DNA from: an uncultured virus (IMG/VR IMGVR_UViG_3300048930_000155)
Taxonomy: Duplodnaviria; Heunggongvirae; Uroviricota; Caudoviricetes
Virus record (IMG/VR): IMGVR_UViG_3300048930_000155
Coordinates: 61,740 to 81,739 of that record
Strand: one strand, 5' to 3'
DNA: 20,000 nt
This document shows positions 996 through 20,000 of the stretch, in pieces (within the stretch, counting starts at the first letter, position 1; every line of letters starts with the position of its first letter). The translations under genes and the position numbers were made by a program. The notes beneath the pieces were generated by a model. It was not told the DNA's origin. It was given only the letters and a program-made list of their open reading frames with translations, and made no database searches.

Positions 996-1232
996 ATGGC
1001 AAAAATAGGAAGATCAATTAGAATGAAACAAGAAGACAAAGGACCTTACTATGTGCTTGGAATTGCAGTGACTCATGATGGTTTTGAGTTACGTAAGTTA
1101 AAGATGCACGGGGACGAAGTTATGCACGTAGAGACGGTAGCCACGTCCACAGATAGGGCCGAAATCATATCACAACTGGAAATAAATACAGTATATTATG
1201 CCTATGACTTTAACCAACAACAAAGTAAATAG
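996..1232 (+). CDS. Hypothetical protein
   Basis: 78-aa ORF with strong SD (TAGGAG); no recognised motif. Confidence 0.7.
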   Translation: MAKIGRSIRMKQEDKGPYYVLGIAVTHDGFELRKLKMHGDEVMHVETVATSTDRAEIISQLEINTVYYAYDFNQQQSK

Positions 1233-1896
1233 CGGTACCGCACATTTTCAAACAGAGCTTAGCGACGCTTTAATCAAGTTTAGCCGCCACGGGCACCTAG
1301 CCGTAGTGCAGTACCTAATCGAAAAGGGCGCTAACGTTAGGGCCCGTGGCGACGCGGCGCTACGCAGGGCGGCGGAGAATGGACACCTAGACATCGTGCA
1401 GTACCTAATCGAAAAGGGCGCTGACGTTAGGGCCGATGATGTCGAGGCGCTACACCGGGCGGCTACTAACGGGCACCTAGCCGTAGTGCAGTACCTCATC
1501 GAAAAGGGTGCTAACGTTAGGGCCTATAACGACGCGGCGCTACACTGGGCGGCTCGTAACGGTCACTTAGACGTAGTACAGCTCCTCATCGAAAAGGGCG
1601 CTAAAGTTAGGGCCTGTGACGACTCGGCGCTACGCTGGTCGGCGGATAACGGTCACCTAGCCGTAGTGCAGTACCTAATCGAAAAGGGCGCTGACGTTAG
1701 GGCCCGTAACGACGAGGCGCTGCGTAACGCGGCGGAGAATGGTCACCTAGCCGTAGTGCAGTACCTAATCGAAAAGGGCGCTAACGTTAGGGCCCGTGAC
1801 GACGAGGCGCTACGCGAGGCGGCGCATAATGGACACAAAGACGTCGTACAATATTTAGAAAACGTTATTAAGGAGCTTAAGAAGTGCAAGTGCTAA
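1198..1896 (+). CDS. Ankyrin-repeat protein 1 (6 x 30-aa repeats plus caps); start uncertain
   Basis: GHLAVVQYLIEKGA(N/D)VRAxxDxAL(R/H)xAAxx repeats, N-cap QTELSDALIKFSRH, C-cap GHKDVVQYLENVIKE. Confidence 0.92.
   Translation: MPMTLTNNKVNSGTAHFQTELSDALIKFSRHGHLAVVQYLIEKGANVRARGDAALRRAAENGHLDIVQYLIEKGADVRADDVEALHRAATNGHLAVVQYLIEKGANVRAYNDAALHWAARNGHLDVVQLLIEKGAKVRACDDSALRWSADNGHLAVVQYLIEKGADVRARNDEALRNAAENGHLAVVQYLIEKGANVRARDDEALREAAHNGHKDVVQYLENVIKELKKCKC
1291..1830 (+). repeat. Six tandem 90-bp ankyrin-coding units
   Basis: Units start at 1291, 1381, 1471, 1561, 1651 and 1741 with a near-invariant core such as GAAAAGGGCGCT(A/G)ACGTTAGGGCC. Confidence 0.97.
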
Positions 1897-2075
1897 ACTT
1901 TATCGCAATAACTAGAGAGCTTTACTACAATCGTCCGTCTACACTAAGTAACTTGCAGCACGTAGTAGTAGTATTATCTAACGCTAGATGTCACGAATTT
2001 TTACTAAAGGTTGAGCAGGAAAGCATCAAAGCGCAAGAAGCAAAAGCTCATATCCCTACCGTCTTTGACCATTGA
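1884..2075 (+). CDS. Small hypothetical protein
   Basis: GTG start 8 nt after AAGGAG (1870-1875), which lies inside the ankyrin C-cap; fills the gap before the next promoter. Confidence 0.55.
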   Translation: MQVLNFIAITRELYYNRPSTLSNLQHVVVVLSNARCHEFLLKVEQESIKAQEAKAHIPTVFDH

Positions 2076-2098
2076 CATTCACTGAAGACTAGTATAAT
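2072..2098 (+). promoter_or_regulatory. Putative sigma70-type promoter
   Basis: Consensus TTGACA (2072-2077) and TATAAT (2093-2098) but only a 15-nt spacer; GGAGG SD and ATG 2120 follow. Confidence 0.55.
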
Positions 2099-2119
2099 CT
2101 AAAAACACTGGAGGAAATC

Positions 2120-2695
2120 ATGGATACAGTAAAAACAAAAAAGGGCACAGTCCTTCCCTTAATGAGCCTTAAAGGTAAGCCGTATATGCAGGTAGCTCAT
2201 AGGATAGTTTGGTTTAATGAAGATACGGAAGGTGGAGCTTTCAGTATCGAGACTGAAAATCTTACTTTGTCTGAAGATCGTGCAGTTATCAAAGCTACCG
2301 TAAAGGTATTTGATAGCAGTAACCGTTTAATAAAGCAGGGCGTAGGAACTAAATCTGAATCTAAAAAGGACTTTGCGGATTTTATAGAAAAGGCTGAAAC
2401 TGGGGCCATTGGCCGAGCTATCACCATGTTAGGGTACGGTACTGCATACGCGCTCGCAGACTTAGACGAAGGCGGACGCATTATCGACAGTCCAGTAGTT
2501 AATGTTCGTAAGCAAGAAGTGAAATCGGAAATACTGTCCGCCCCTAATAGTCCCGCAGCTAACTCTACCGTTGAAGTTACAAGTACAGTAAGCCCTACGG
2601 CAGAAGGCGTTACCAAGCCCGTCGCTACAAAAAGGGCAATGTTTCAGAAGCCTGGCGCCGCTGCAGCAGTGCCTAGCTCAGATGAGTGGTCATGA
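2120..2695 (+). CDS. Putative single-strand annealing protein (Rad52/Sak-like)
   Basis: KGKPYMQVAHRIVWF...AVIKATVKV...GVGT...IEKAETGAIGRA pattern with a disordered tail ending SSDEWS; lies between an exonuclease and an SSB. Confidence 0.55.
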   Translation: MDTVKTKKGTVLPLMSLKGKPYMQVAHRIVWFNEDTEGGAFSIETENLTLSEDRAVIKATVKVFDSSNRLIKQGVGTKSESKKDFADFIEKAETGAIGRAITMLGYGTAYALADLDEGGRIIDSPVVNVRKQEVKSEILSAPNSPAANSTVEVTSTVSPTAEGVTKPVATKRAMFQKPGAAAAVPSSDEWS

Positions 2696-2796
2696 AAACT
2701 CGCAAACAACCACGACCGGATTTCGAAACAGTATTGACGGCTACGGCGGTAGTAATAACACTAGTATATGTAGTTTATAAGGCAATAACCATTTAA
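2692..2796 (+). CDS. Small single-TM peptide (34 aa), not in ORF track
   Basis: ATGA overlap with the previous stop; translates to MKTRKQPRPDFETVLTATAVVITLVYVVYKAITI and fills the intergenic gap. Confidence 0.55.
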   Translation: MKTRKQPRPDFETVLTATAVVITLVYVVYKAITI

Positions 2797-2810
2797 AGGA
2801 GAATAATAAA

Positions 2811-3062
2811 ATGGCTAAGTATAAAACAATTGGATCTGTGATTAAATCAAAAGACTTCGAAGTGACTAAAGAAGCTTATATTAAGATTAAAGAGGATGTT
2901 ACGCTCAAGGCTGGCTCTTTCGTAAGCCTTGTTAATCCAAGAACCCTAGCGGATAAACTCGCTGGAAAGGTGTCAGACGAGGTACTCGAAAAGATTAGAG
3001 AGCGTGGCGAAAAGACACCAAGCTTCATAATGTTCGAATTGCAGGTTAAAAATGAGGAGTAA
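2811..3062 (+). CDS. Hypothetical protein
   Basis: 83 aa with strong SD AAGGAG. Confidence 0.75.
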   Translation: MAKYKTIGSVIKSKDFEVTKEAYIKIKEDVTLKAGSFVSLVNPRTLADKLAGKVSDEVLEKIRERGEKTPSFIMFELQVKNEE

Positions 3063-3321: not shown

Positions 3322-3598
3322 TAAAATCGTATTAGCTGGAAACTTAGTTCAAGATCCAGACGTAATTAATTTACCTGATCAGTCCATGGTTAAAATTCGA
3401 GTAGCCACTAACTTCGGGCGTGGCGAAAAGAAAGAGACTGAATACTTTAATGTGAAGATGTTTGGTAAATTGGCAGATACGTGTAAGAAGTTTCTTACAA
3501 AAGGTAAGGCGGTAATCGTAGAGGGGCGAGTTCAGACTCGTACTCACGAGGGTAAGAGTTACGTAGAAGTGCTTGCCGACGACGTTCGTTTTATCTAA
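3314..3598 (+). CDS. ssb: Single-stranded DNA-binding protein (OB fold only)
   Basis: MYNKIVLAGNLVQDP...IRVATN...ETEYFNVKMFGKLAD...LTKGKAVIVEGRVQTR. ATG 3314 after GAAAGGA is preferred over 3299. Confidence 0.9.
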   Translation: MYNKIVLAGNLVQDPDVINLPDQSMVKIRVATNFGRGEKKETEYFNVKMFGKLADTCKKFLTKGKAVIVEGRVQTRTHEGKSYVEVLADDVRFI

Positions 3599-3611
3599 TA
3601 TAGGAGCTAAG

Positions 3612-4172
3612 ATGAAATACAAGATTTTGCTGGCAGCAATGCTGGCGTCATGCGGATCACCGCAGACTCAGCTATTGCCAGGAATTAATGGTATAAACGG
3701 GGTAGATGGTGCCGATGGAGCTGACGGTGTAAATGGGCTAGCTTTAATTAGCCAGGCCAGAACAGCTACTGCACTGGAGTGCCCGTCCTCTACTGGAACC
3801 GCAATAGACGTGTACCAAGATACGGACTCTTCTGGAACAGTGAGTGCCGGAGATGTATTCCAGTCCGGACTAGTCTCCTGTAACGGCACAGACGGTAATA
3901 ATTCAGTGGCTTCAGTAACGTCGTTCAACTTCACTAACCACGTCTCGTGCTTTGATCTAGGGAATAACTTTAGCGCTAAAAAATCATCCACCACTGCCAA
4001 TGACGTTAGGATCTACCCAAACAGCAGTTGTTCGGGATCACACGTAAATTCATTAGCCGAAGGTAGCGACGAAGTATTCCAAGTAACAGATAACATGTTA
4101 TTGATACTAGAGGGTAATAACTCCGGGACCATCGCGCCGTTGACTATTAGGCGAATTCTGTTTAACCTGTAA
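3612..4172 (+). CDS. Putative lipoprotein with short collagen-like G-X-Y stretch
   Basis: ATG 3612 after AGGAG; signal MKYKILLAAMLAS-C (lipobox); GINGINGVDGADGADGVNG; Cys-containing C-terminal domain. Confidence 0.7.
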   Translation: MKYKILLAAMLASCGSPQTQLLPGINGINGVDGADGADGVNGLALISQARTATALECPSSTGTAIDVYQDTDSSGTVSAGDVFQSGLVSCNGTDGNNSVASVTSFNFTNHVSCFDLGNNFSAKKSSTTANDVRIYPNSSCSGSHVNSLAEGSDEVFQVTDNMLLILEGNNSGTIAPLTIRRILFNL

Positions 4173-4200
4173 GTATACCGCACTAAACAAAGGAGATAAT

Positions 4201-4533
4201 ATGACTGATGATAAAACAAGCGCGCCCGAAGTTGTGGAGCCTAGCTTAGAGGCGCCTGCAATAGATCTAGCTAACGTAGATTTCTCAAATCCAGATAACA
4301 TTCCCAAAGAAGTGTTAGATATGCCGGTATTGATGCCTCCTAAGCGGGTGATTCATTCATACGCCTCAAACTTTAAACTTCGCCTATCTAATCCCTTTAG
4401 ATTGAATCTTAATCCTACAAGGAAGATTAGCCGAAGCTGGTATAAGGGGCAACTTATTACCTCAGACGAGTACTCTAAGATTTCGTTCGAAGAAGCCTTT
4501 GCAGATCGAAACATTATTAAGAGAGCTAAGTAA
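4201..4533 (+). CDS. Hypothetical protein
   Basis: 110 aa, SD AAGGAG, acidic N-terminus and basic C-terminus. Confidence 0.7.
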   Translation: MTDDKTSAPEVVEPSLEAPAIDLANVDFSNPDNIPKEVLDMPVLMPPKRVIHSYASNFKLRLSNPFRLNLNPTRKISRSWYKGQLITSDEYSKISFEEAFADRNIIKRAK

Positions 4534-4568
4534 ACTTAAGGCACTAACTTTACATATAGGAGCGGACT

Positions 4569-7532
4569 GTGCAAGTGAATTACGTACGACTTACTAAAGG
4601 ACTTTCAGATTACGGTAAACTTATCCCCCCTAATGAGATCTCTAAGTTCATTAAGGATTATAATAGCGATTACTATAGAAGTGTCTATCGCTACTCAGAG
4701 AATCAGTTTAACGAGTTTCAGAAGACTAAGACCGTAGCCGGTATAGTCGATGTAGTCACTCCTAGCTTAGTGTTCGACTTTGATAGTAAGGACGACACAG
4801 AGCAAGCTAGAAAGGACACAGTAGAGCTGGTATCTAGACTAATTAGCTTAGGCGTCGCTAGAGACCAGATGCTTGTATCCTATTCAGGCTCTAAAGGCTT
4901 TAGTGTAGAATTAGAAACTGTTCACTCCTTTACGCCCACTCAATTAAAAAATGTAGCCCAGAACTTAGCCACTGGACTAAATACGCTGGACACTAAGATC
5001 TATAATGCGTCTAGGGTATTTCGCGTCCCTTATACTAAGCACCCCGCCACTGGGCTGTACAAACTCCCTATTAGCATCGAACAGTTAAGCGAGTTTAATA
5101 TGGACCAGATTAAGGAGCTGGCTAAGAACTTGGATAACGCAGCCTCTCCTGCCGTAGACGGCGTAGAGCTTCCTCAGGCCATTCTAGCGCTCGCTAATAG
5201 CGCCCCAGAAGTTACGCCCATCGCCGAGGTTGGTGACATCGATTACTCTAAAAAAGAACGCGGCATGCCCTCCTGTAAGTATCGCATCCTAAATGGGGAC
5301 TTCCCATCTGGTAATCGCAATAACGCGCTAATGGCTTTAGGCGCACATTACAAATCTAAAGGCGTGCCAAAAGAAGTTAATTATAGAATCCTGAAGGGTG
5401 CAGCCGAACTTCAAGGTAGGCGTTATAACCAAACGCCGTTCGATAAGACTGAGATCTGGAACAATATTATAGAAGTGCTGTACGGCCCTCACTGGAAAGG
5501 TGCCACGTACTCTTGCGCAGATCATGACTGGTTAAAGGCTATTTGCCCTACCGGTGGCAAGTGTAGCGGTAAGGCTAAGAAAGAGTTTGTAACGATTGAC
5601 TCAGTGTCAGACATCTTCTCTAACTACGCCACTAACATCGATAAAAATACTATTAAGACTGGAATAGATACTATTGATGATAGTATTAGACTACAGACCC
5701 ACAGTCACGTAGTTATAGCGGGTTCGAGTGGCTCAGGCAAATGTCTAGGTAAGGGGACCTTAGTACTAATGTACGACGGTAGTACTAAGGTAGTCGAAGA
5801 CGTTAAAGTAGGCGACTTGCTTATGGGAGACGATTCTACTCCTCGTACCGTATTGTCGCTAGCAAGAGGTTCTGAAACGTTATATAAAGTGAGCCAAGAA
5901 GATGGAGCAGACTACATAGTAAACGAGTCTCACATTTTGTCCTTAAAGTGTACTAATGATCAGCAACACAAGGCCACTAAGACTTATATCGCTAATAGAG
6001 TAGTAGATATTTCAGTTAAAGAGTACCTAAATGCAAGCGGTAAATTCAAAGAGTGCTTTAAAGGATACAAGGCGGCTGTTGAATTCGAAGAAAAATCGCA
6101 ACCCATTCCTGCTTATCTTATGGGATACTGGCTAGGCAACGGCAGCAAATCAAAACCTCAAGTGAGTATGCATGCGAAAGACGTGGAAGTTTTGGAGTAT
6201 ATTAAAAACTACGCCACAGCTAAGGGTTATAAGTTTAACGCTGCGCGCGAGTCGGAGAATGGAGTATCCGTATATTTTTACGGGAATAAAAACGAATTCG
6301 TTAATACGCTTAGAGAACTGGAGCTTGTAAATGATAAGCACGTCCATAGGATATATCTAACGGGATCTAAGGCGCAGAGGTTAGATTTAATCGCAGGCTT
6401 ATTAGACTCTGACGGGCACTACGATCCCAATAAAAATACTTTTGAATTCACATCCTCGGATGAGCGACTTATGCAGCAATTTCAGTGGCTATGTCGCTCC
6501 GTAGGGTATAAGTGTACCTATAAGAGAGAATTAAAGCATTACAGATCTTTTACTAAAGGAAAACTCTACGAAGGGGATGCAGTTGCTTATAGGGCTTATC
6601 TAACTGGGGACAGATTAGATCTTATACCGAATAAGCTTGCAAGAAAAAGGGCCGTAGCTCAGATTAAACAGAGATATCAAGACTGCACTAAAATCTCACT
6701 AGAGAATATAGGTTTTGGAGAGTATTTTGGGTTTGAGATTGACGGTAATAAACGATTTGTGCTGGGCACAGACTTTACAGTCACACATAATACTAGCACT
6801 ATTCTAAATATTTTAAACAACGCCAGTAAAGCTGGTCTAAAGGCAGTCATGGGCAGCATGGATATGGGGGCCCCACTAATCTACCAAAAGCTGGCCCAGA
6901 AAGTAAGCGGACTAACTGATAAGAGGCTCTACGATATCTTTAAGAACAAAGATCAGAAGCGCATCAAAGAAATCCAGCAAAAGATCATGGAAGAGTACAA
7001 GAACGTATTCTTCGACTTTAGGTCTGGAGTAGAGATTGGTGAGCTTAGAGAAAATCTACTGGCCATGAAGGACCAACACGGCTCCGATCTTAAACTCGTA
7101 GTGTACGATTTCATTAATCGAATTCGAGGGCCCTATTCCGATGAGACGGCTAATCTAGCTTATATCGCCCCCAAACTATCGGACTTAGCTAACGAGACTG
7201 AAACGCTTATTATTAGCTTAGCTCAGATTGCAAGGTCTAAGGGCGGCCCTGCTACACCTCTTACAGATAGCCGAATTGCTAAAGGATCTTCCGCTATTGA
7301 GGAATCCGCTACGGTACTGTTTGGCCTGTGGAGGCCTGGCTATAATAAAGGCGATCAAGATAAGTATCTTCGCATTGCAGCCTTAAAGACGCGCATGGGT
7401 AAAGAGTTTTCTGTGGGGCTTGGCTGGGATGGCATGACTGGTAACATTCGCTCGCTTAGCTCCGAGGAAGAAGCAGACTTAGAGATCTTAGAGACAAAGG
7501 ACACTGAAAAAGACGGGTGGGGCAACTTCTAG
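4569..7532 (+). CDS. AEP primase - SF4 (DnaB-like) helicase fusion, intein-containing
   Basis: AEP motifs LVFDFD, SGSKGF, DTKIYNASRVFRVPYTKH; PriCT-like GNRNNALMALG; Walker A AGSSGSGK|TS split by an intein; LVVYDF, IISLAQ, GSSAIEESA and KTRMG match DnaB-type motifs. Confidence 0.88.
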   Translation: MQVNYVRLTKGLSDYGKLIPPNEISKFIKDYNSDYYRSVYRYSENQFNEFQKTKTVAGIVDVVTPSLVFDFDSKDDTEQARKDTVELVSRLISLGVARDQMLVSYSGSKGFSVELETVHSFTPTQLKNVAQNLATGLNTLDTKIYNASRVFRVPYTKHPATGLYKLPISIEQLSEFNMDQIKELAKNLDNAASPAVDGVELPQAILALANSAPEVTPIAEVGDIDYSKKERGMPSCKYRILNGDFPSGNRNNALMALGAHYKSKGVPKEVNYRILKGAAELQGRRYNQTPFDKTEIWNNIIEVLYGPHWKGATYSCADHDWLKAICPTGGKCSGKAKKEFVTIDSVSDIFSNYATNIDKNTIKTGIDTIDDSIRLQTHSHVVIAGSSGSGKCLGKGTLVLMYDGSTKVVEDVKVGDLLMGDDSTPRTVLSLARGSETLYKVSQEDGADYIVNESHILSLKCTNDQQHKATKTYIANRVVDISVKEYLNASGKFKECFKGYKAAVEFEEKSQPIPAYLMGYWLGNGSKSKPQVSMHAKDVEVLEYIKNYATAKGYKFNAARESENGVSVYFYGNKNEFVNTLRELELVNDKHVHRIYLTGSKAQRLDLIAGLLDSDGHYDPNKNTFEFTSSDERLMQQFQWLCRSVGYKCTYKRELKHYRSFTKGKLYEGDAVAYRAYLTGDRLDLIPNKLARKRAVAQIKQRYQDCTKISLENIGFGEYFGFEIDGNKRFVLGTDFTVTHNTSTILNILNNASKAGLKAVMGSMDMGAPLIYQKLAQKVSGLTDKRLYDIFKNKDQKRIKEIQQKIMEEYKNVFFDFRSGVEIGELRENLLAMKDQHGSDLKLVVYDFINRIRGPYSDETANLAYIAPKLSDLANETETLIISLAQIARSKGGPATPLTDSRIAKGSSAIEESATVLFGLWRPGYNKGDQDKYLRIAALKTRMGKEFSVGLGWDGMTGNIRSLSSEEEADLEILETKDTEKDGWGNF
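5742..6791 (+). mobile_element. Intein (350 aa) with LAGLIDADG homing endonuclease domain
   Basis: Starts CLGKGT after Walker A GK, has VNESHIL (block B), YLMGYWLGNG and LIAGLLDSDG, and ends VTHN before Thr+1. Confidence 0.93.
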
Positions 7533-7561
7533 TTGCTCTGTAAGCTATTCTAGTGTAATAT
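7533..7561 (+). promoter_or_regulatory. Putative promoter
   Basis: TTGCTC-17 nt-TAATAT, then GAGGGGAG SD and ATG 7582. Confidence 0.4.
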
Positions 7562-7581
7562 AAAAGTGAGGGGAGATTATC

Positions 7582-7851
7582 ATGCAAAAACTTAGAAGAT
7601 ACCTTATTATTAGCGCTGGCGTATTAGCCGGCTTATTTCTTATCGCAGGAGGCGCGGGCCTTTATAAAGCAGGGCGAATCAGCGGATCAGTTTATGGGTG
7701 CCTGAAAATGGCAGAACTTGTAATGCCGCCCGCAATGCAGCCCGAATGCGGATTTGTAGAGGACGACCTTGCACTATCTTTTATTAATCCGTTTACGCGT
7801 AGCCGAGCCACAGTAAACTTAGAAACTCAAACAGAAATATTACCTGAATAG
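7582..7851 (+). CDS. Small membrane-anchored hypothetical protein
   Basis: N-terminal hydrophobic helix YLIISAGVLAGLFLIAGGAGLY. Confidence 0.65.
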   Translation: MQKLRRYLIISAGVLAGLFLIAGGAGLYKAGRISGSVYGCLKMAELVMPPAMQPECGFVEDDLALSFINPFTRSRATVNLETQTEILPE

Positions 7852-7858
7852 GTGTGCC

Positions 7859-8161
7859 ATGACTAAGCCTCTTTACGAGCTTAATCTCCCGCCAGCTTCT
7901 TGGTTCATAGGACAATACGTTAGAATTGTCACCACTATGGAAGAGCAGGATGGTATGGGCGAAGTTATTGGAAGAGTTCAAGTAGTCGGTCTGGTAGTAG
8001 ACAGCGACAGCATGTATTTGACATTAGGCGAATTCTCGCCGCTTGAAGAAACTCCCATAGCCCACATGGCCATTAAACATTCAGATATTCAAATGATATC
8101 TTTAGCCAGCCCGGACGATTCTGATATAGAAGACGAGCCGGCTAAGCGCAACTTAAACTGA
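7859..8161 (+). CDS. Hypothetical protein, possible Sm-like fold
   Basis: IGQYVRI...GLVVDSDSMYLTL...IKHSDIQMI resembles the Sm1/Sm2 pattern; acidic tail. Confidence 0.5.
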   Translation: MTKPLYELNLPPASWFIGQYVRIVTTMEEQDGMGEVIGRVQVVGLVVDSDSMYLTLGEFSPLEETPIAHMAIKHSDIQMISLASPDDSDIEDEPAKRNLN

Positions 8162-12369: not shown

Positions 12370-13346
12370 AAAAGCTTGACCTAAGATTTGGAAATCCAGC
12401 ATTTATTCAAGAATTAACTGATGCTCAGTACTACGGCACGATATCATCGGCTAACCAGTCCTACGATCATACGGCACCGCAAAAGGATTTAATAGAGAGC
12501 ATCCTGTCATTGCATGAGCAAGTTGGCAATGTACTAAATATACACGACTATGACGTGGTAATCTCTAATGGTGCAAGTCAAATGCTGACGGCTGTATCGA
12601 GGGCTATGCCAGTAGGCGTATATATTCCATTTTGGTCTAGGTTTAGGTACTTAGTAGAAGACATGCAGGTATTCACAAGAGAGTTTCCCCACGACCACAA
12701 TAACCCTAATTTACACAAGCTAATGGTAACCTACCCTAATAATCCTGATGGTAAGCTATCTGCGATAGTTAACGAAGCTAAGGTAGTGGATGCGTCTTAC
12801 CATTGGCCTACGTTTTACAGGCCTGACGAAAAACTCGTACCCCTGAATAATGACGTACTAATTTTTAGTTTTAGCAAGCTGTCCGGAATGTCGTCAGTTA
12901 GGCTAGGTTGGGCACTAGTTAAAAAGGGCGTCACTGTAAATAATCACGAAGATTTAGCTAAAGTTATCTCTTCTCATATTGAAATGAGTACATGTGGAGT
13001 AAGTCCACTAGCTCAGCAGGTAGCCGTGGAATTCATAGAGGGCGTTCTTATAGAAATGCAAGTGGGGAGTTCCATACTCGATAGAGCACGAGAGGTTCTT
13101 AACGATCGTATTAACGAATTTTATCAGGCGTACCCTACCCATATTTATGGAGAGCAGCGAGGGATGTTCGCTTATATCAAGGACCCTACCGATACGCTAG
13201 ACCAGATCGGGGTAGAGTATTATAGGGGGCGAGATTTTGGAGACTCTGATAGTTATATTAGGTTAAATATCGGCGGCTCCGCACAGGAGTTTCGGGAGTT
13301 GATGGCCAGGCTGTTACTTAGAGCCGTTACCGCTGGAGGGGTTTAG
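12366..13346 (+). CDS. PLP-dependent fold-type I enzyme, TAA1/TAR/alliinase-like
   Basis: LHEQVGN, VVISNGASQ, TYPNNPDG, DASYHWP, FSFSKLSG (PLP lysine), RLGWALVK, GVSPLAQ, YIRLNI. Confidence 0.85.
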   Translation: MKKLDLRFGNPAFIQELTDAQYYGTISSANQSYDHTAPQKDLIESILSLHEQVGNVLNIHDYDVVISNGASQMLTAVSRAMPVGVYIPFWSRFRYLVEDMQVFTREFPHDHNNPNLHKLMVTYPNNPDGKLSAIVNEAKVVDASYHWPTFYRPDEKLVPLNNDVLIFSFSKLSGMSSVRLGWALVKKGVTVNNHEDLAKVISSHIEMSTCGVSPLAQQVAVEFIEGVLIEMQVGSSILDRAREVLNDRINEFYQAYPTHIYGEQRGMFAYIKDPTDTLDQIGVEYYRGRDFGDSDSYIRLNIGGSAQEFRELMARLLLRAVTAGGV

Positions 13347-13565
13347 CGTACCGTTAAAGTAACTGGCCGCAGTATGGCAAAAGACTACGTCTTGTGGCGG
13401 CAACGGCACTGTAAAATTGTACTGCTTGGCGCGACCTAGTCCGCAGCCCAGTAGATAAGCTCTTTCTACATTTTTAGCCATGTAGTAATAAGTAAACTCG
13501 CCGCCTACCGTATAGGCTATAAGTAACAATAACGCTGCTACAATAGTACCAAGAACGCTTCTCAT
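13314..13565 (-). CDS. Small membrane/secreted hypothetical protein
   Basis: N-terminal hydrophobic helix; last gene of the minus block, overlapping the PLP gene convergently by 33 bp. Confidence 0.6.
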   Translation of the reverse strand: MRSVLGTIVAALLLLIAYTVGGEFTYYYMAKNVERAYLLGCGLGRAKQYNFTVPLPPQDVVFCHTAASYFNGTLNPSSGNGSK

Positions 13566-13780
13566 TACTTTAACCCTGAATTACGTTTCCATGCATCAAA
13601 TCTAGAAAGAGTCCGTCTAAGCTCTTCCGACCTATCTTGTGCAGTATCAGACAATGTATCGTCGTAGAGCACTTTTATATAGTAATCCTTATCCGAAGCT
13701 GAACAATGACCCCACACAACAGTCCACTGATTGTCAAGCTTAAGGAGATAGACTGGCGGGGCCATCGATTCAGCGCTCAT
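13565..13780 (-). CDS. Hypothetical protein
   Basis: 71 aa, TAATG coupling to the next gene. Confidence 0.6.
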   Translation of the reverse strand: MSAESMAPPVYLLKLDNQWTVVWGHCSASDKDYYIKVLYDDTLSDTAQDRSEELRRTLSRFDAWKRNSGLK

Positions 13781-13782
13781 AA

Positions 13783-14100
13783 CTATTCCCTATTCTTATT
13801 AAGACGCCTAGCTGCATCGAAGAAAGCCGCTTCGTATATAGCCGCCTCTCTAGGAGTCAGGCCGCCGTTTTTTTGATTAAACTCTACGATAGCAGTCTCA
13901 AATATCTTCTCCACTGCAAACTTAGAAACTCTAACAGACGGACCACTAGAGAGCATGGAAGCTGTAAGCTCCAAGGTAAACTTAAATCTATCGTACATAT
14001 AATCCCTGAATTCTAATTCTGAGCCGCCAAAACTAAGCATATCCGCCATTAAGTTAGTAGACTGCATAGCGATCCATTCGTCTATTTCTTGCTTAGTCAT
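13783..14100 (-). CDS. Hypothetical protein
   Basis: 105 aa, tightly packed in the minus operon. Confidence 0.65.
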   Translation of the reverse strand: MTKQEIDEWIAMQSTNLMADMLSFGGSELEFRDYMYDRFKFTLELTASMLSSGPSVRVSKFAVEKIFETAIVEFNQKNGGLTPREAAIYEAAFFDAARRLNKNRE

Positions 14101-14321
14101 TATTTACCCTCACTATTGGCTTTGCGTTTTGAGTCCCAATAAGCTTGGGCATCTACTATCTTATCCTCGTCTACTGTAAGACGTACCGTATTAATGATTA
14201 CCCAGTGCCTAGTGCCAGAATCGCTTTTAGCCGGACGTTCATATCTACCACCCACATCTCGGCGCTCCCCGTTTATCATAAAATCCAGCACGATAATATC
14301 CTGACACTCTCTAAAGCTCAT
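14100..14321 (-). CDS. Hypothetical protein
   Basis: 73 aa, SD AAGGAG upstream. Confidence 0.65.
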   Translation of the reverse strand: MSFRECQDIIVLDFMINGERRDVGGRYERPAKSDSGTRHWVIINTVRLTVDEDKIVDAQAYWDSKRKANSEGK

Positions 14322-14340
14322 TTAGGCACTCCTTCTATAG

Positions 14341-14775
14341 TCAGACTAGCTTAGATTTGAACTTCTGTAAAGACTCAATTATATCTTTAATATTTTGAGG
14401 TAGACTAGACTGGCCCTCAATGTCCTGAGGGCGAGCTAAGGCCAGCACTATTTTATCAGTAAATTCTAACTTACGTACGGCGGTTGATGCAATAGTCCCT
14501 AGGCATATAACGCATTTAAACGGCTGTAGTTCAACGTTTAGAACGTCTAAGGCATTTGCCCGTTCTTCAGAAGAAATCCTCTCAGTGGGGCTTATAGAGC
14601 GTTTAATGACACTTGTAATACGAAAATCGTACCCTAATAGTCCTGCGGCCTCTAGCCACATGCTAAACTGTCGACCAGGGGCTGTTTGAGTTATAGGATG
14701 AGCTATGCCAGCATCGCCAACGAAATCTTGAAGTACGACTATAAATTTAGGGGCACAGTTTAGCTCAGTTTGCAT
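14341..14775 (-). CDS. Uracil-DNA glycosylase (family 4)-like fold protein, probably degenerate
   Basis: GRQFSMWLEAAGL...ITSVIKR...ELQPFKCVICLGTIA scaffold; canonical GEAPG and HP motifs are absent. Confidence 0.55.
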   Translation of the reverse strand: MQTELNCAPKFIVVLQDFVGDAGIAHPITQTAPGRQFSMWLEAAGLLGYDFRITSVIKRSISPTERISSEERANALDVLNVELQPFKCVICLGTIASTAVRKLEFTDKIVLALARPQDIEGQSSLPQNIKDIIESLQKFKSKLV

Positions 14776-14776
14776 A

Positions 14777-14986
14777 TTATTTAACTTCTATCTCATAGGG
14801 AATTCCCAGCACGTCCCATGCATTGTTTGGTAATTGTAGGAATCTTCCGCTCTCATCTTGGAATAAGCTTGCTGAACTGGCTTCTAGGTTCTTATGCCAC
14901 TTAACTAGTCCTACCATATTTTCCACTAGCTTTAGTTCGCGAGCTTTGCCGGTAACGCCAGTGTATTTTATTACTGTAGTTTTCAT
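14777..14986 (-). CDS. Hypothetical protein
   Basis: 69 aa, ATGA overlap with the upstream gene. Confidence 0.6.
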   Translation of the reverse strand: MKTTVIKYTGVTGKARELKLVENMVGLVKWHKNLEASSASLFQDESGRFLQLPNNAWDVLGIPYEIEVK

Positions 14987-16044
14987 GGTCTAGGTAGCCT
15001 TTTTGCAGGGTTCTTTAACAGTTTTGCGTGATACCCCATCATCGACCAGTTTTCTAATGATTGTCTGCCATTTAGATAGTCCGGCCCAGTAGCCGGTTCC
15101 TGGGGCCAAAAGTGGGCAATGTTTCTAAGGACCATTACAGCATCTTGCCTTTCTTTTTCAGTAAGGACCCCAGCATTCCACGCCATAGCGTAGAAGAACG
15201 CATTAATATTGTTTTGCGGCGCAATTTCTACAGCTACCCTTCGAATAGCTCGTCTATTCAGAGGAGATGAGTATAAGTGTTCCATAGCGGTTAGATTAAG
15301 TAAAGTGATGTGATGGTCGTAATAAATTAAATGTTTATCATTATAGATCACTGGCTCTATCCACCATAGCCACCCGCCCATTAAAATAAAGTGGATAAAG
15401 TATACTAGGTGCCAAACTCCGCCGAACTCTTTTCGCATAAGCGCAAGCAAGGAGGCCGAGCTATAGTAGTTAGGTCCAAAGGCCGGCTGAGATAGATTCT
15501 TATAACCATCAAATGTGTAATTAATGCCGCTACTAGAACTACGGGCTGAGACCATACCATTATGGTGTGCTAATCCTAAACAATGCTTCAGATAGTGCAG
15601 ACCTATCTTCTTTAGCTCTTGTTTGGGCCCGCCAAACATAGTGTAACTGTACACCCAGCTAGTGAGACAATCTCTAGAGACGGGATTAGGGTCGGTCTGT
15701 ACCGGATACATGCGTTCCAAGGAGCCGTCAGCCCTTACTAGTCTTCGTAGACCTTCGCTAGCAATAGTCATAGGCTTATACGACCAGGTACCGTAGTGGA
15801 CTAGTGCGGTATGGTCGTCTTTACTGTCTGTAAACACCTCGTTTCGCATTTTAGTGATCGCGCCAAGATCTATAATTTGTTCTAAACTTCTAGGGCCGTC
15901 TGTGGGTACCTTAAACGATGTGCCTATTTTACCCCGCCATTTTTTACGAAAAAGTATAATAGCTACTGGATATAGTAAGTACAGTAGCCACTGAATTGGG
16001 AGACCGACTGTGATAAATAGTAACCATCGTAATGCTGCGCTCAT
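14983..16044 (-). CDS. Hypothetical membrane-anchored helical protein (353 aa)
   Basis: Long ORF with a hydrophobic N-terminus and a second aromatic hydrophobic segment; coupled to ankyrin gene 2. Confidence 0.75.
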   Translation of the reverse strand: MSAALRWLLFITVGLPIQWLLYLLYPVAIILFRKKWRGKIGTSFKVPTDGPRSLEQIIDLGAITKMRNEVFTDSKDDHTALVHYGTWSYKPMTIASEGLRRLVRADGSLERMYPVQTDPNPVSRDCLTSWVYSYTMFGGPKQELKKIGLHYLKHCLGLAHHNGMVSARSSSSGINYTFDGYKNLSQPAFGPNYYSSASLLALMRKEFGGVWHLVYFIHFILMGGWLWWIEPVIYNDKHLIYYDHHITLLNLTAMEHLYSSPLNRRAIRRVAVEIAPQNNINAFFYAMAWNAGVLTEKERQDAVMVLRNIAHFWPQEPATGPDYLNGRQSLENWSMMGYHAKLLKNPAKRLPRP

Positions 16045-16613
16045 TTCTTATTCTCCTTAATAACATTCTCTAAATACTTCACGACAGGTAGGTGCCCGTT
16101 ATTCGCCGCCTCGCGTAGCGCCCAGTCGTCACCGGCCCTAACGTCAGCGCCCTTTTCGACGAGGTACTTCACGACGTGTAGGTGTCCACTCTCCGCCGCC
16201 ACGCGTAGCGCCAAGTCGTCATGAGCCCTAACGTTAGCGCCCTTTTCGATTAGGTACTGCACGACGTGTAGGTGACCGTTAAACGCCGCCCAGTGTAGCG
16301 GCGCGTCGCCTAGGGCCCTAACGTCAGCGCCCTTTTCGATTAGGTACTGCACTACGGATAGGTGCCCTTTACGAGCCGCCCCGCGTAGCGCATACTTGCC
16401 GCTGTCCCTAACGTCAGCGCCCTTTTCGATTAGGTACTGCACTACGGCTAGGTGCCCATTCTCCGCCGCCCAGCGTAGCGCCGCGTCGCCTAGGGCCCTA
16501 ACGTCAGCGCCCTTTTCGATTAGGTACTGCACTACGGCTAGGTGACCGTATCGGCTAAACACGATCAAGTCGTTGTCAAGGTCGTTTTGACACTTTACTG
16601 CTAACATACTCAT
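16041..16613 (-). CDS. Ankyrin-repeat protein 2 (5 repeats plus caps)
   Basis: Same 30-aa unit; N-cap QNDLDNDLIVFSRY; C-cap YLENVIKE. Confidence 0.93.
   Translation of the reverse strand: MSMLAVKCQNDLDNDLIVFSRYGHLAVVQYLIEKGADVRALGDAALRWAAENGHLAVVQYLIEKGADVRDSGKYALRGAARKGHLSVVQYLIEKGADVRALGDAPLHWAAFNGHLHVVQYLIEKGANVRAHDDLALRVAAESGHLHVVKYLVEKGADVRAGDDWALREAANNGHLPVVKYLENVIKENKK
16098..16547 (-). repeat. Five tandem 90-bp ankyrin-coding units
   Basis: Reverse complement of the unit at 1291-1830, exact 90-bp period. Confidence 0.97.
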
Positions 16614-16864
16614 TTCTTCTTTTTATTTACTCGTTTTTTATCGTCGACTAAGCTAAAGTCGTAATCTTCTAACGTTCTATCTATAAACTCAACTAGTTCT
16701 AGCGCAGTTCTTGGCGTTAGTCGTACAGTGACTGATTCATGCCCTACCGTAAACACTTCGCCTATAGTCTTAGTTTCGAGATCTTTCTCATTACGGAAAG
16801 TTAGGCGAAAGTGGTCGCCTATTCGACTCGTAGTAAACGACGCACTAAGTTTTTTAGTTTGCAT
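16610..16864 (-). CDS. Hypothetical protein, possibly DUF3467-like
   Basis: Start re-called to ATG 16864 (MQTKKL) after AAAGGT; FRLTF...VRLTPRTALEL pattern. Confidence 0.55.
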   Translation of the reverse strand: MQTKKLSASFTTSRIGDHFRLTFRNEKDLETKTIGEVFTVGHESVTVRLTPRTALELVEFIDRTLEDYDFSLVDDKKRVNKKKK

Positions 16865-16865
16865 A

Positions 16866-17519
16866 TCATTGACCTTTCTTAATAACATTCTTTAAATACT
16901 GCACTACGGCTAGGTGCCCGTTACGAGCCGCCCAGCGTAGCGCCTCGTCGTCCTGGGCCCTAACGTTAGCGCCCTTTTCGACGAGGTACTGCACTACGGC
17001 TAGGTGCCCGTTATACGCCGCCTCGCGTAGCGCCTCGTCGTCACGGGCCCTAACGTTAGCGCCCTTTTCGATTAGGTACTGCACTACGGCGAGGTGACCG
17101 TTATTCGCCGCCCAGCGTAGCTCATAGTCGTCTTGGGCCCTAACGTCAGCGCCCTTTTCGACGAGGTACTGCACTACGACTAGGTGCCCGTTATACGCCG
17201 CCCAGCGCGGCGCATAGTCGTCACGGGCCCTAACGTCAGCGCCCTTTTCGATTAGGTACTGCACTACGTCTAGGTGACCATTCTCCGCCGCCCGGCGTAG
17301 CGCCTCGTCGTCACGGGCCCTAACGTTAGCGCCCTTTTCGACGAGGTACTGCACTACGGCTAGGTGACCGTTATACGCCGCCTCGCGTAGCGCCAAGTCG
17401 TCTAGGACCCTAACGTCAGCTCCCTTTTCGATTAGGTACTGCACTATGGCGAGGTGACCGTAGCGACTAAACGTGATTATATCATTGTTAAGATCTGTTT
17501 GAGTATTTGTGCCGCGCAT
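16866..17519 (-). CDS. Ankyrin-repeat protein 3 (6 repeats plus caps)
   Basis: Same unit; N-cap QTDLNNDIITFSRY; C-cap YLKNVIKKG. Confidence 0.93.
   Translation of the reverse strand: MRGTNTQTDLNNDIITFSRYGHLAIVQYLIEKGADVRVLDDLALREAAYNGHLAVVQYLVEKGANVRARDDEALRRAAENGHLDVVQYLIEKGADVRARDDYAPRWAAYNGHLVVVQYLVEKGADVRAQDDYELRWAANNGHLAVVQYLIEKGANVRARDDEALREAAYNGHLAVVQYLVEKGANVRAQDDEALRWAARNGHLAVVQYLKNVIKKGQ
16920..17459 (-). repeat. Six tandem 90-bp ankyrin-coding units
   Basis: 90-bp period with alternating LIEK and LVEK units. Confidence 0.97.
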
Positions 17520-17522
17520 TTA

Positions 17523-18083
17523 TCATTTCCCAAGAAAAGCTTGATAACTTCCCTGCTCATTGCAGGTCTTTATCTGAGCTTCAGTAAGCTTAATCTTATC
17601 AGCGCGTTTGCACTTTGCGCAAGCTAGAGATATTTCATACTTATCGTCAGAGTAGCTAAAAAATTGACTAGTAGAGACCGGGGTCTGGCAATAGTAACAA
17701 GTACTGCGAAGTTCTTCTGTTTTAGGCGTGCCTGAAAAAGGATTCGAAGTTTTAGCAAAGGGCCAACCATCATCCTCATCGCTAATAAATCCCAAGAACG
17801 GGGCCATGCGCGCATACGAATCAGTAACGCCCCAGTGCATACAGGCCACTTCACAATTAGTAAAGCTGATACTTGGCTCAGAGCAGTAACCTCTAGCCAA
17901 AATAGCAGCTACGACATTACTAACCTCTTCGTCATTAAAAATTGCGTATGTGCTGCGCATCAGGCCGCTCTCATCCTTATTGGCCCAAAAAATTACTTGA
18001 CCTGAACTAGTGGGGTACTGAATTACTACTATTCTAGTCTTAGGTGATTTCTTAAGACTGCGTATGATATAATTACTCATCAC
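17523..18083 (-). CDS. Hypothetical protein with C-terminal zinc-ribbon motif
   Basis: CYYC...CAKC pair near the C-terminus. Confidence 0.65.
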   Translation of the reverse strand: MMSNYIIRSLKKSPKTRIVVIQYPTSSGQVIFWANKDESGLMRSTYAIFNDEEVSNVVAAILARGYCSEPSISFTNCEVACMHWGVTDSYARMAPFLGFISDEDDGWPFAKTSNPFSGTPKTEELRSTCYYCQTPVSTSQFFSYSDDKYEISLACAKCKRADKIKLTEAQIKTCNEQGSYQAFLGK

Positions 18084-18309
18084 TAACCTCGGATAATGCG
18101 TCTATAAAGTTAACTACGTTTAAGTCTACACAAGCCTGTATCTCTTCTGGGGTACCGTCAGGTAACGTGTCTCTACAGTAACGCTCGAAATACTGCTCTA
18201 ATTTGGATATATCTACTTCGTGCCTAACAACTACAGGATCGCTAACTGTCCTGACTGTAATCTCCCCGCAACCTAATAAGGCGGCTAGCCCTAAGTATCT
18301 AATATTCAT
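18073..18309 (-). CDS. Small putative lipoprotein
   Basis: Start re-called to ATG 18309 after GGAGAGGA; MNIRYLGLAALLG-C lipobox. Confidence 0.6.
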   Translation of the reverse strand: MNIRYLGLAALLGCGEITVRTVSDPVVVRHEVDISKLEQYFERYCRDTLPDGTPEEIQACVDLNVVNFIDALSEVSDE

Positions 18310-18502
18310 ATTCCTCTCCATTATCAGTGAATAATTCGTCTTTAATCTGATAGTAGTGCTCATTCATTATAAAATCAATCTCATCGTCAGGTACATCAAA
18401 GCCGCTAGAAATGTACACGGCCCTGAGCACATCTAAATTATCCACGGAATCGCCGTATATCACGATGTCCACTAAGTTGCCGTTACTATCTTTAGCTATC
18501 AT
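18299..18502 (-). CDS. Small acidic hypothetical protein
   Basis: 67 aa, strong SD AAGGAG, D/E-rich. Confidence 0.7.
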   Translation of the reverse strand: MIAKDSNGNLVDIVIYGDSVDNLDVLRAVYISSGFDVPDDEIDFIMNEHYYQIKDELFTDNGEEYEY

Positions 18503-18532
18503 GTAAATCTCCTTTAAAATCTTAAATTGAGC

Positions 18533-18546
18533 TGCTATAATATAGC
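18533..18546. promoter_or_regulatory. Extended -10 element inside a palindrome
   Basis: TGCTATAAT on + (18533-18541) overlapping the inverted repeat GCTATA-A-TATAGC (18534-18546). Confidence 0.45.
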
Positions 18547-18550
18547 TACC

Positions 18551-18814
18551 ATGAATTCTTTCTCAGAGCAAGATGAGTTCGAGCTTTTTTTAGCCGAGTT
18601 GACTAATTCAGCGTATTGTCGTGCCGTATTCAATTTAAATTACGATAGCGCCCCGAAGCGGCTATCTGAGTTATTATGGGAAGCTTCTATTATCGAAGAG
18701 TCTTCGTGTACCCCTATATTTGCAATGCGCTCTAAACGTATACCATACTTTACGCTATTAGACCGTAATAGTCTAGTTACTGGTTACTACGGCGAATCTC
18801 TAGTAGAGGTCTGA
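18551..18814 (+). CDS. Possible lone plus-strand hypothetical protein
   Basis: ATG 9 nt after the extended -10; fills a ~300-bp gap with no minus-strand ORF in the track; may be non-coding. Confidence 0.35.
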   Translation: MNSFSEQDEFELFLAELTNSAYCRAVFNLNYDSAPKRLSELLWEASIIEESSCTPIFAMRSKRIPYFTLLDRNSLVTGYYGESLVEV

Positions 18815-19054
18815 CTGTGAGTATACTGAATTTTTATCTGGGGCTTTACCGAACAATGTTCGAGTCTCCACTCGAGTAAGGACGCACTGTTTTTCTAAAA
18901 ACGCACCAAACTCCTTTTTAAGAATAGCCCTAGCGTCCTGCTCAGTATCCCCAAACGCTGACACTTCCTCTAAGATATCACCCAAGAACTCGAACTGATA
19001 ATCATGTTCGGTGGTAGTTACGTCGAATATGAATAATGATTTAATCTGTTCCAT
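18800..19054 (-). CDS. Hypothetical protein
   Basis: 84 aa, abuts the upstream stop. Confidence 0.65.
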   Translation of the reverse strand: MEQIKSLFIFDVTTTEHDYQFEFLGDILEEVSAFGDTEQDARAILKKEFGAFLEKQCVLTRVETRTLFGKAPDKNSVYSQSDLY

Positions 19055-19528
19055 TTAGAAATCCCTTCCGTATTTAATTACTACGGTCTTATTGGATAGA
19101 ACCCCTACTCCTATACTAGCGTTATCTTGAATCTTTCTTAAATAATCTACTCCGATTACCGGACGTATCTGCTCTGCTACTGTGGCCTTGCCTATACGAA
19201 AGCCGTCCGAACCCTGTCCCATACTGAGCATTAAAGTATTTTGCCTAGCCCTATCCTGCTGACAAGCTGCTGTCACTACTTTAGTTATAACTTCGGTAAT
19301 GACCTTAGTCTCGGTCTTTATTACCTCTTTCGTAATTGTTACTGGATTAGACTTCAAGGATTCGATTTCGGCGGATAGCTTCGTAATTGTAGTCTGAAGT
19401 TCTTCATTAACTCTTTTATTAGCTAAGTTAGCCATAGCCGCGTCGTAAAGCGCTACCCGGAGTCCAAAGGATAGCAATAATATAAGCACTAAGCCTACTA
19501 TGATAATAATTCCTTTAATCTGTTTCAT
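19055..19528 (-). CDS. Membrane-anchored coiled-coil protein with C-terminal beta strands
   Basis: N-terminal TM helix, coiled coil, T/V/K-rich linker, amphipathic strands ending YGRDF. Confidence 0.7.
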   Translation of the reverse strand: MKQIKGIIIIVGLVLILLLSFGLRVALYDAAMANLANKRVNEELQTTITKLSAEIESLKSNPVTITKEVIKTETKVITEVITKVVTAACQQDRARQNTLMLSMGQGSDGFRIGKATVAEQIRPVIGVDYLRKIQDNASIGVGVLSNKTVVIKYGRDF

Positions 19529-19531
19529 TCA

Positions 19532-20000
19532 TTAACCTTTCTTAATAACGTTTTCTAAATACTTTACCACGTCTTCGTGACCCCTCGCCACCGCCCAGCG
19601 TAGCGCATAGTCGTCACGGGCCCTAACGTCAGCGCCCTTTTCGATTAGGTACTGCACTACGGCTAGGTGCCCTTTACTCGCCGCCCAGCGTAGAGCCTCG
19701 TCGCCACGGGCCCTAACGTCAGCGCCCTTTTCGACGAGGAACTGCACTACGGCTAGGTGACCGTAGCGCGCCGCCTCGCATAGCGCCTCGTCGTCCTGGG
19801 CCCTAACGTTAGCGCCCTTTTCGATTAGGTACTGCACTACGGCTAGGTGCCCGTAGCGCGCCGCTCCGCGTAGCGCATAGTCGTTATCAGCCCTAACGTC
19901 AGCGCCCTTTTCGATTAGGTACTGCACTACGGCTAGGTGCCCTTTACTCGCCGCCCAGCGTAGAGCCTCGTCGCCACGGGCCCTAACGTCAGCGCCCTTT
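19532..20000 (-). CDS. Ankyrin-repeat protein 4 (at least 4 full repeats; 5'-truncated by window)
   Basis: Frame is open to the window end; same unit; C-cap GHEDVVKYLENVIKKG. Confidence 0.92.
   Translation of the reverse strand, partial: KGADVRARGDEALRWAASKGHLAVVQYLIEKGADVRADNDYALRGAARYGHLAVVQYLIEKGANVRAQDDEALCEAARYGHLAVVQFLVEKGADVRARGDEALRWAASKGHLAVVQYLIEKGADVRARDDYALRWAVARGHEDVVKYLENVIKKG
19583..20000 (-). repeat. Four full plus one partial 90-bp ankyrin-coding units
   Basis: Full units span 19583-19942; a partial unit runs to the window edge. Confidence 0.97.

Follow-up and report, generated by a model that had tools for sequence, protein, structure and literature searches.

An eight-gene family of capped ankyrin repeat proteins with surface-focused variation in an uncultured tailed bacteriophage

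To our knowledge, the ankyrin repeat proteins of tailed phages have so far mainly been described as single auxiliary genes or as part of the eukaryote-facing module of phage WO. Arms races in poxviruses, giant viruses, intracellular bacteria and fungal immune receptors are typically marked by enlarged ankyrin families whose binding faces change rapidly. This paper concerns a family of eight ankyrin genes in the genome of an uncultured tailed bacteriophage (Caudoviricetes), known from an 81,739-base IMG/VR record (IMGVR_UViG_3300048930_000155) of the class direct terminal repeats. The window referred to below is the final 20 kb of this genome (20,000 nucleotides, positions 61740-81739 of the record).

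Several described systems resemble this family. Designed ankyrin repeat proteins (DARPins) consist of an N-terminal cap (N-cap), identical internal modules and a C-terminal cap (C-cap), with variation limited to surface positions (PMC8683736). The ankyphage protein ANKp is encoded by a single gene and carries a signal peptide in two of three phages; the same study counted ankyrin domains on 418 IMG/VR contigs and reported that phage ankyrins modulate eukaryotic phagocytes (10.1101/608950). The ANK, TPR and WD repeats of fungal NOD-like receptors (NLRs) are shuffled within and between paralogues and vary in number; this exchange keeps the repeat frame uniform, and positive selection was found on a few positions in the inner helix and the loop of the ankyrin repeats (Dyrka et al. 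2014, PMC4986451). In Bodo saltans virus, a eukaryotic virus with a 1.39-Mb genome, 148 ankyrin copies occur, most of them as tandem arrays at the genome ends; expanded families of this kind, known from this virus and from poxviruses, are read as the trace of a host arms race (PMC5871332).

Like ankyphage ANKp and phage WO, the phage described here carries its ankyrin genes on a bona fide tailed-phage genome; a terminase, a portal, an adaptor and a head protein are encoded on the same molecule. Records of phage WO hold several ankyrin genes as well, with 4-8 matching places per record. However, the WO and ankyphage repeats are canonical and about 34% identical to those studied here, while the eight paralogues of the present phage all consist of copies of a single homogenised unit and show no visible signal sequence, and the family scans of its genome matched no lysogeny genes. 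With the ankyrin accordions of Bodo saltans virus and poxviruses, the phage shares a viral multigene family of variable repeat number with signs of recent duplication. A limited literature search on phage ankyrin families and ankyrin anti-defence proteins returned no such family outside phage WO, which does not prove its absence.

Eight genes built from one 30-residue unit

The window holds four ankyrin genes, one of them running off its end (Table 1). The sequence-only reading of this DNA had derived these genes from one 90-bp unit present in 21 complete copies, and the open reading frames (ORFs), Tandem Repeats Finder and the unit register all agree with it. The period-90 arrays show 81-86% matches and 0% indels, successive unit anchors are always exactly 30 codons apart, and the complete internal units add up to 6 + 6 + 5 + 4 = 21. 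The genome-wide copy count which that reading had called for showed the family to be larger than the window: nine open pieces were found, corresponding to eight genes after circularising, with 37 complete units. The proteins comprise 66, 125, 126, 190, 192, 217, 232 and 277 residues, with 1, 3, 3, 5, 5, 6, 6 and 8 internal units, respectively, and the summed gene lengths amount to 1,425 codons, about 5% of the 82-kb genome. The smallest member (66 amino acids; genome 59782-59982, minus strand) lies 1.8 kb upstream of the window and consists of an N-cap, one unit and a C-cap, a natural counterpart of the minimal 'N1C' DARPin.

The largest member, gene DE, crosses the contig junction into genome positions 1-436 and encodes 277 residues with 8 units in the circularised assembly. 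It contains a 167-bp exact repeat whose copies are spaced 270 bp, or three units, apart. This repeat is longer than the overlaps at the ends of the two public records of this genome (71 and 127 bp), which explains why the contigs break there and makes the 8 units a lower bound. A stretch of 7.8 kb around the junction contains six of the genes, all on one strand and with unrelated small ORFs between them, and the other two are 14-18 kb away. All eight frames are intact and embedded among unrelated phage ORFs, with starts and stops overlapping those of their neighbours. The genes are homologous from about the start codon up to the stop; neither the upstream nor the downstream flanks align. Head-to-tail duplication of whole genes with homologous flanks, as in a genomic accordion, was thus not observed, and in this dispersed layout of eight genes in an 82-kb bacteriophage the family differs from that of Bodo saltans virus.

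The fold of the encoded proteins is that of an ankyrin solenoid. Pfam profiles Ank_4, Ank_2, Ank and Ank_3 matched all four window proteins far above cut-off, e.g. with 190.4 bits against a cut-off of 22.7, and with E-values of 1e-33 to 1e-57. The AlphaFold2 model of the gene B protein, computed from an alignment of 48 sequences, has a mean pLDDT of 96.8 and a pTM of 0.90 and displays 14 helices in a helix-turn-helix-loop rhythm, with helix pairs every 30 residues. Foldseek returned ankyrin solenoids and DARPins as best matches to this model (TM-score 0.81-0.87), the value of 0.87 belonging to the designed ankyrin 4o60. DARPin chains were also the best sequence matches of the phage proteins in the PDB, with E-values as low as 1e-70. 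A conserved N-cap (DLNNDLITFSRYGHL) and a C-cap (GHLAVVQYLKNVIKKG-like) are present in 8/8 genes and both are helical in the model, in line with the earlier description of capped proteins whose frame stays constant while the surface varies. A hydrophobic, signal-like N-terminus was seen in none of the eight proteins on inspection by eye, no predictor having been run; their starts are polar, e.g. MRGTNTQTDLNND and MQNTQNDLNND.

The unit deviates from the canonical ankyrin repeat of 33 residues with a TPLH motif and a beta-hairpin. Its period is exactly 30, 'ALR' is placed opposite 'PLH' in the HMMER alignments, and DSSP assigns helix 2 of the gene B model to unit positions 3-11, a loop to 12-21 and helix 1 to 22-29, without any strand. 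Compared to the DARPin module, which has 33 residues and a beta-hairpin, positions 5-7 (library position 5, T6 and P7) are deleted. This single gap of three residues per unit indicates a shortened ankyrin module without the hairpin tip; as judged from the alignments, three hairpin-tip residues are missing and 'ALR' takes the place of 'TPLH'.

Variation, unit exchange and selection

Statistics on the whole family were calculated for 36 of the 37 units, leaving out one unit of the junction-spanning gene DE. The seven positions named as variable in the sequence-only reading, 4, 19, 20, 22, 26, 29 and 30, are precisely those that rank highest in amino-acid entropy when the 21 window units are compared, and the genome-wide picture is the same. 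Entropy in the window units is 2.96, 2.70, 2.22 and 2.16 bits at positions 29, 19, 22 and 26, followed by 1.53, 1.41 and 1.32 bits at positions 4, 30 and 20 and by 1.20 bits at position 15 (D/N). At the four core positions 19, 22, 26 and 29, the residue is E, R, W or Y in 99 of 144 cases (69%). The six-residue surface signatures of the units (36/36) all differ from each other.

The framework is uniform at many silent sites, but the near-identity at synonymous sites that had been claimed for it was too strong a wording. The proportion of synonymous differences (pS) in the framework amounts to 0.150 for the window units and to 0.165 for those of the whole genome, the codons of G1 and L9 are split, and the mean DNA identity of the units is 84%. 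Among the 23 framework codons of the 21 window units, 6 are invariant and 13 show one codon in at least 19 of the 21. For the seven variable positions, the pairwise proportion of nonsynonymous differences (pN) reaches 0.43-0.44, compared with the framework pS of 0.15-0.165. H2 is encoded by CAC, E11 by GAA and K12 by AAG in 36/36 units, while the other phage genes use these codons in 55%, 55% and 47% of cases. The G+C content at third codon positions (GC3) is 0.64 in 7 ankyrin ORFs versus 0.40 in 115 other ORFs of a greedy ORF set. The fixed codons and the GC3 contrast point to common descent or homogenisation rather than to codon bias. In 1-kb segments, the overall G+C content reaches about 0.49-0.51 where ankyrin genes are present and is 0.40-0.46 in the remainder.

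Repeat units exchange between the paralogues. With D and E treated as a single gene, 29 of 36 units have their closest match in a gene other than their own, and DNA identity within genes (0.849) hardly differs from that between genes (0.842). Exact tracts of 81-109 bp are common to different genes and, apart from the repeat in gene DE, no exact repeat exceeds 109 bp. At the amino-acid level the units are on average 76% identical (72-82% within genes), and the framework alone 90%.

Selection per position was counted in a SLAC-like manner, by Fitch parsimony on a FastTree tree of the 36 units (90 nt). The ratio dN/dS was 2.27 at positions 19, 22, 26 and 29 (binomial p 0.011), 1.59 at all seven variable positions (p 0.05) and 0.45 in the framework (p 3e-4). 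Nonsynonymous changes at the four core positions numbered 25, 22, 18 and 24, respectively, where 5.3-6.4 were expected from the global silent rate. This is 2.8 to 4.7 times the neutral number, and the excess survives a 30-fold correction (corrected p at most 0.004). The dN/dS analysis proposed in the sequence-only reading thus came out above neutral for part of the positions it had named.

Exchange of repeats between paralogues combined with selection at surface positions is the evolutionary mode already documented for fungal NLRs (PMC4986451), and the phage family displays both, albeit by a crude method for the selection part. The two systems differ in that the fungal repeats are 33-34 residues long and stand behind NACHT/NB-ARC and effector domains, whereas the phage proteins have no nucleotide-binding domain. 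Moreover, the internal identity of 85% used as a criterion for the fungal repeats is higher than the mean of the phage units.

Positions 22, 26 and 29 are spaced i, i+4 and i+7 on helix 1, with conserved A23, L24, A27 and A28 between them, and this spacing places them on one helical face. In ankyrin proteins, helix 1 lines the concave groove. The variable residues of this helix would accordingly face the concave groove, with 22, 26 and 29 making up a single stripe along the inner helix; position 4 falls on the outer helix. The positions randomised in DARPin libraries, which we take to be 2, 3, 5, 13, 14 and 33 (Binz et al. 2003), can be compared with these sites. They are visible as differences among the repeats of 5le2_A. 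In the HMMER alignment, unit positions 19, 20, 21, 22, 26, 29, 30 and 4 correspond to DARPin positions 33, 1 (D1), 2, 3, 10 (L10), 13, 14 and 18 (E18, outer helix). The proposed match to the randomised positions therefore holds in part, for four of the seven variable sites (19, 22, 29 and 30, at library positions 33, 3, 13 and 14) but not for 26, 20 and 4. Position 26, among the four fastest in the phage, is the framework residue L10 in DARPins; conversely, DARPin position 26 (unit position 12) is an invariant K in the phage.

The closest proteins in a collection of 5.8 billion sequences are 45-65% identical, with Moumouvirus, a chytrid fungus and Burkholderia as named sources. These short ankyrins of Mimiviridae (the Moumouvirus 'repeat protein'), chytrids and some bacteria have the same strict 30-residue period and a similar frame, GHLxVVxYLVExGAxxHAxxDxALRxAxxN. 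A variability profile of 137 thirty-residue units, taken from 66 of 120 listed homologues, correlates with that of the phage over the 30 positions (Pearson r 0.84), the variable positions being the same. The giant-virus and eukaryote members usually carry an additional N-terminal domain (for example an F-box-like start, or the conserved Moumouvirus N-domain), whereas the phage proteins consist of repeats and caps only. The phage frame is also far more uniform than that of the subfamily: positions 11, 12, 16 and 17 have 1.3-2.7 bits in the distant homologues and 0 bits in the phage, while positions 19, 22, 26 and 29 keep 60-82% of the family-wide entropy. Taken as an internal control, this sequence comparison speaks for selective retention of diversity at the latter positions. 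The idea that conserved unit types are common to the phage and its distant homologues was rejected, as 54 of 200 column shuffles reached the observed mean signature match.

Relatives of the family in other sequence sets are distant. Among 50,697 cultured-phage records, matches (about 34% identity) came from five records of phage WO and from Mollyvirus only. The ankyrin query found 36 loci on metagenome contigs, with best identities of 50-57%, none of which had the DNA frame of the phage. On genome contigs it found 5 loci, including metagenome-assembled genomes (MAGs) of a Bacteroidetes (40%), a Flavobacteriaceae (63%, over a short stretch) and a Babeliaceae bacterium (31%). The unrelated metagenome contig C687J35174_10024316 encodes two neighbouring 30-residue ankyrin paralogues (3836-5685), 57% identical to gene B, which again combine a fixed frame with a variable surface (framework pS 0.20 and pN 0.06, variable pN 0.45). 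One unit of this contig (AQDDEALCYASRY) resembles a phage unit.

The phage genome and the surroundings of the ankyrin genes

The circularised assembly of this tailed bacteriophage measures 81,668 bp, the 71-bp terminal repeat of the record being located inside ankyrin gene DE. Another public record, of 81,795 bp and with an overlap of 127 bp, carries the sequence as its reverse complement; with the overlaps trimmed, the same circle of 81,668 bp was obtained, 100% identical. Pfam and PHROGs profiles identified a large terminase, a P22/SU10-like portal, an SU10 adaptor, a major head protein, tail-fibre-like proteins and an M15 peptidase, as well as a family A DNA polymerase (PolA), a DnaB-type helicase with an intein, SSB and a RecA/UvsX-like recombinase. 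Portal and adaptor are similar to their podovirus counterparts. Among the matches of the genome proteins to these families there was neither an integrase nor a repressor, and no tRNA genes were found in the genome. Several homing endonucleases of the GIY-YIG and HNH types are encoded; in the structural module (7075-13654 of the second record), four such genes crowd around the major head protein gene (10718-11734).

A search of IMG/VR with the DNA polymerase returned the identical twin record only, and metagenome contigs gave no match. The nearest cultured relatives of this polymerase are those of Flavobacterium phages, with 28.7% identity. Together with the ankyrin matches in MAGs, these relatives weakly favour a host among the Bacteroidota, as far as sequence similarity can suggest one.

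Table 1 Ankyrin genes, repeat arrays and adjacent ORFs in the window
Feature	Position	Strand	Description
Ankyrin gene A	1198-1896	+	232 aa; N-cap, 6 complete 30-residue units, C-cap ending VVQYLENVIKELKKCKC; Pfam Ank_4 E 1.8e-57
Gene A period-90 array	1289-1836	+	6.1 copies (Tandem Repeats Finder)
353-aa membrane-like ORF	14983-16044	-	Hydrophobic N-terminus; start overlaps gene C stop; no Pfam/PHROGs family
Ankyrin gene C	16041-16613	-	190 aa; N-cap, 5 complete units, C-cap; Pfam Ank E 7.7e-38
Gene C period-90 array	16075-16544	-	Tandem Repeats Finder
92-aa ORF, family unassigned	16610-16888	-	Between genes B and C, overlapping both; no Pfam/PHROGs match
Ankyrin gene B	16866-17519	-	217 aa; N-cap, 6 complete units, C-cap; modelled protein
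Gene B period-90 array	16897-17461	-	Tandem Repeats Finder
Ankyrin gene DE, 3' part	19532-20000	-	155 codons, open at window end; 4 complete units and C-cap
Gene DE period-90 array	19591-20000	-	Tandem Repeats Finder

As the overlaps of the 92-aa ORF with both of its neighbours show, the ankyrin genes are part of a normal block of phage genes that all point in the same direction. Since the start of the 353-aa ORF overlaps the gene C stop, these two are probably co-translated from a single operon. Promoter-like sites in 13300-20000 (12 versus 9.5 expected) and terminators (1 versus 5.7 expected) were uninformative.

Elsewhere in the window, a 987-aa DnaB-type helicase (4569-7532, plus strand) is split by an intein, with Hint at residues 392-492, LAGLIDADG at 605-660 and DnaB_C resuming at 742-956. 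A 199-aa ORF (3573-4172, plus strand), without a Pfam or PHROGs family match, has an internal start (MKYKILLAAMLASC) that by eye resembles a lipobox-containing lipoprotein signal; collagen-like G-x-x repeats (GINGINGVDGADGADGVNG) come after it. The ORFs at 10760-11035 (91 aa) and 11747-12061 (104 aa), both on the plus strand, have a common MSEQDW start and similar ends, and probably represent another pair of paralogues, both small, within the replication block. An alliinase-like pyridoxal-phosphate aminotransferase is encoded at 12366-13346 (plus strand; Pfam Alliinase_C E 5e-24). Relatives of the latter, 49-55% identical, are encoded by contigs from uncultured sources, the longest measuring 78,670 bp; these contigs probably belong to related phages, and an alignment of the enzyme with these relatives again retrieved only the identical twin record from IMG/VR.

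Explanations for the family and their implications

The explanation we lean towards, at slightly better than even confidence, is that of an eight-gene paralogous family of ankyrin-only capped binders which act in the cytoplasm and evolve by unit shuffling and diversifying selection. All repeats would derive from a single 30-residue unit, the proteins carrying 1 to 8 or more of these internally. The family would change through duplication and loss of units and through recombination between paralogues, the latter keeping the frame uniform even at many silent sites. Selection would drive four positions apart, position 19 in the loop and positions 22, 26 and 29 as a single inner-helix stripe, so that every one of the 36 analysed units would present a different surface. 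The proteins would be made in the cytoplasm of the infected bacterium, since neither a signal peptide nor a membrane segment was seen by eye, and each would clamp a different partner protein in the groove formed by the stripes. Our best guess is that these partners are host proteins of takeover or of anti-phage defence. Of this picture, the genes, the fold, the shortened module, the shuffling and the surplus of amino-acid changes at four positions are shown by the data, while protein binding, action inside the infected bacterium and the class of targets are inferred.

A number of observations weigh against this explanation. The same positions are variable throughout the ankyrin subfamily, in giant viruses, fungi and bacteria, so the pattern may be inherited rather than generated in the phage. 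The selection test is crude, as it applies parsimony to a 90-nt tree, recombination was ignored and the positions were chosen after their variability had been seen; if gene conversion keeps the frame homogeneous, dS would fall and dN/dS would be inflated, which mimics positive selection. Positions 4, 20 and 30, three of the seven, show no excess of amino-acid change and are compatible with neutrality, and position 15 is likewise not significant. The phage units share surface signatures slightly above chance (0/200 shuffles reached the observed value), which suggests that part of the diversity is re-used and not new. The placement on the concave face is based on secondary structure, the alignment with DARPins and textbook geometry. 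Finally, the closest homologues, from giant viruses and a chytrid fungus, give no direct support to bacterial host proteins as the target class.

Some of these points would also fit a family without ongoing diversification, in which the surface differences are old and fixed, each paralogue has one stable job, and gene conversion lowers silent divergence so that the surface merely appears to evolve fast. The long exact tracts between genes and the well-mixed units reveal active sequence exchange, the variable positions are the usual free positions of the subfamily, few residue types are used, chiefly E, R, W and Y, and two independent records are identical, all as expected from such a family. 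However, the conversion tracts of 81-109 bp span variable codons. Conversion should thus erase the surface differences unless selection preserves them, which amounts to diversity-maintaining selection. The exact duplication of 167 bp testifies to a very recent gain of units, and no two of the 36 units are the same. We therefore regard this alternative as unlikely.

A further, likewise unlikely alternative concerns the target. As proposed for ankyphages and phage WO, the ankyrins might be eukaryote-directed effectors of a phage that infects a protist- or animal-associated bacterium, freed at lysis or exported through a secretion system of the host to bind eukaryote proteins. The best named homologues (45-58% identity) belong to a chytrid fungus and to the amoeba-infecting giant virus Moumouvirus. 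Cultured phages contributed WO and Mollyvirus only, and the GC3 of the ankyrin genes does not match that of the other phage genes, as would fit a horizontal origin. A Candidatus Babeliaceae MAG is among the 5 prokaryote loci with an ankyrin match; Babeliaceae presumably live inside amoebae. Phage ankyrins that dampen phagocytosis are documented for ankyphages (10.1101/608950). In that same study two of three ankyphage proteins had a signal peptide, whereas by eye none of the eight proteins has one. Unlike some homologues, the phage repeats are not fused to an F-box, a U-box or another eukaryote-facing domain, and beyond ankyrin no eukaryote-like domain was seen in the 63 + 23 proteins scanned with Pfam. 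With no integrase among the family matches, there is no indication of stable lysogeny, the state in which an effector of this kind would pay off, and the polymerase has its nearest cultured relatives in Flavobacterium phages.

It is very improbable that the arrays and their dispersal result from short-read mis-assembly, or that the genome is a chimera with giant-virus DNA. Both public records do break inside the same ankyrin gene, at a repeat longer than their end overlaps. Nevertheless, two records with different overlaps yield an identical circle, no other exact repeat exceeds 109 bp, and each gene has unique flanks, an intact frame and overlaps with neighbouring phage ORFs. Writing of the variable codons by a diversity-generating retroelement or a similar machine would suit variation sharply limited to a few codons in an otherwise fixed DNA frame, but was rejected as next to inconceivable, because reverse transcriptase PF00078 gave no match at E up to 1 across the 81.7-kb record while control genomes responded, the codons differ at all three bases and not just at adenines (position 19: CGT, TGG, GAT, CTA, CAG, TAT), and there are 36 variable units instead of a single template/variable pair.

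Eight minimal cap-to-cap proteins of 66-277 residues with confident predicted folds would provide a compact and easy experimental system, in which one can ask what such repertoires bind in the bacterial cell and how shuffling and selection shape a family of binders. The 30-residue module without a hairpin is a naturally idealised scaffold and may interest protein engineers. It is tempting, though quite doubtful, to go further and see in this virulent-type tailed phage a self-renewing intracellular ankyrin repertoire, the natural equivalent of a DARPin library, that neutralises varied or fast-changing bacterial immune proteins. If true, this would be repertoire-based counter-defence in a bacteriophage, with shuffling and selection continually yielding new groove surfaces.

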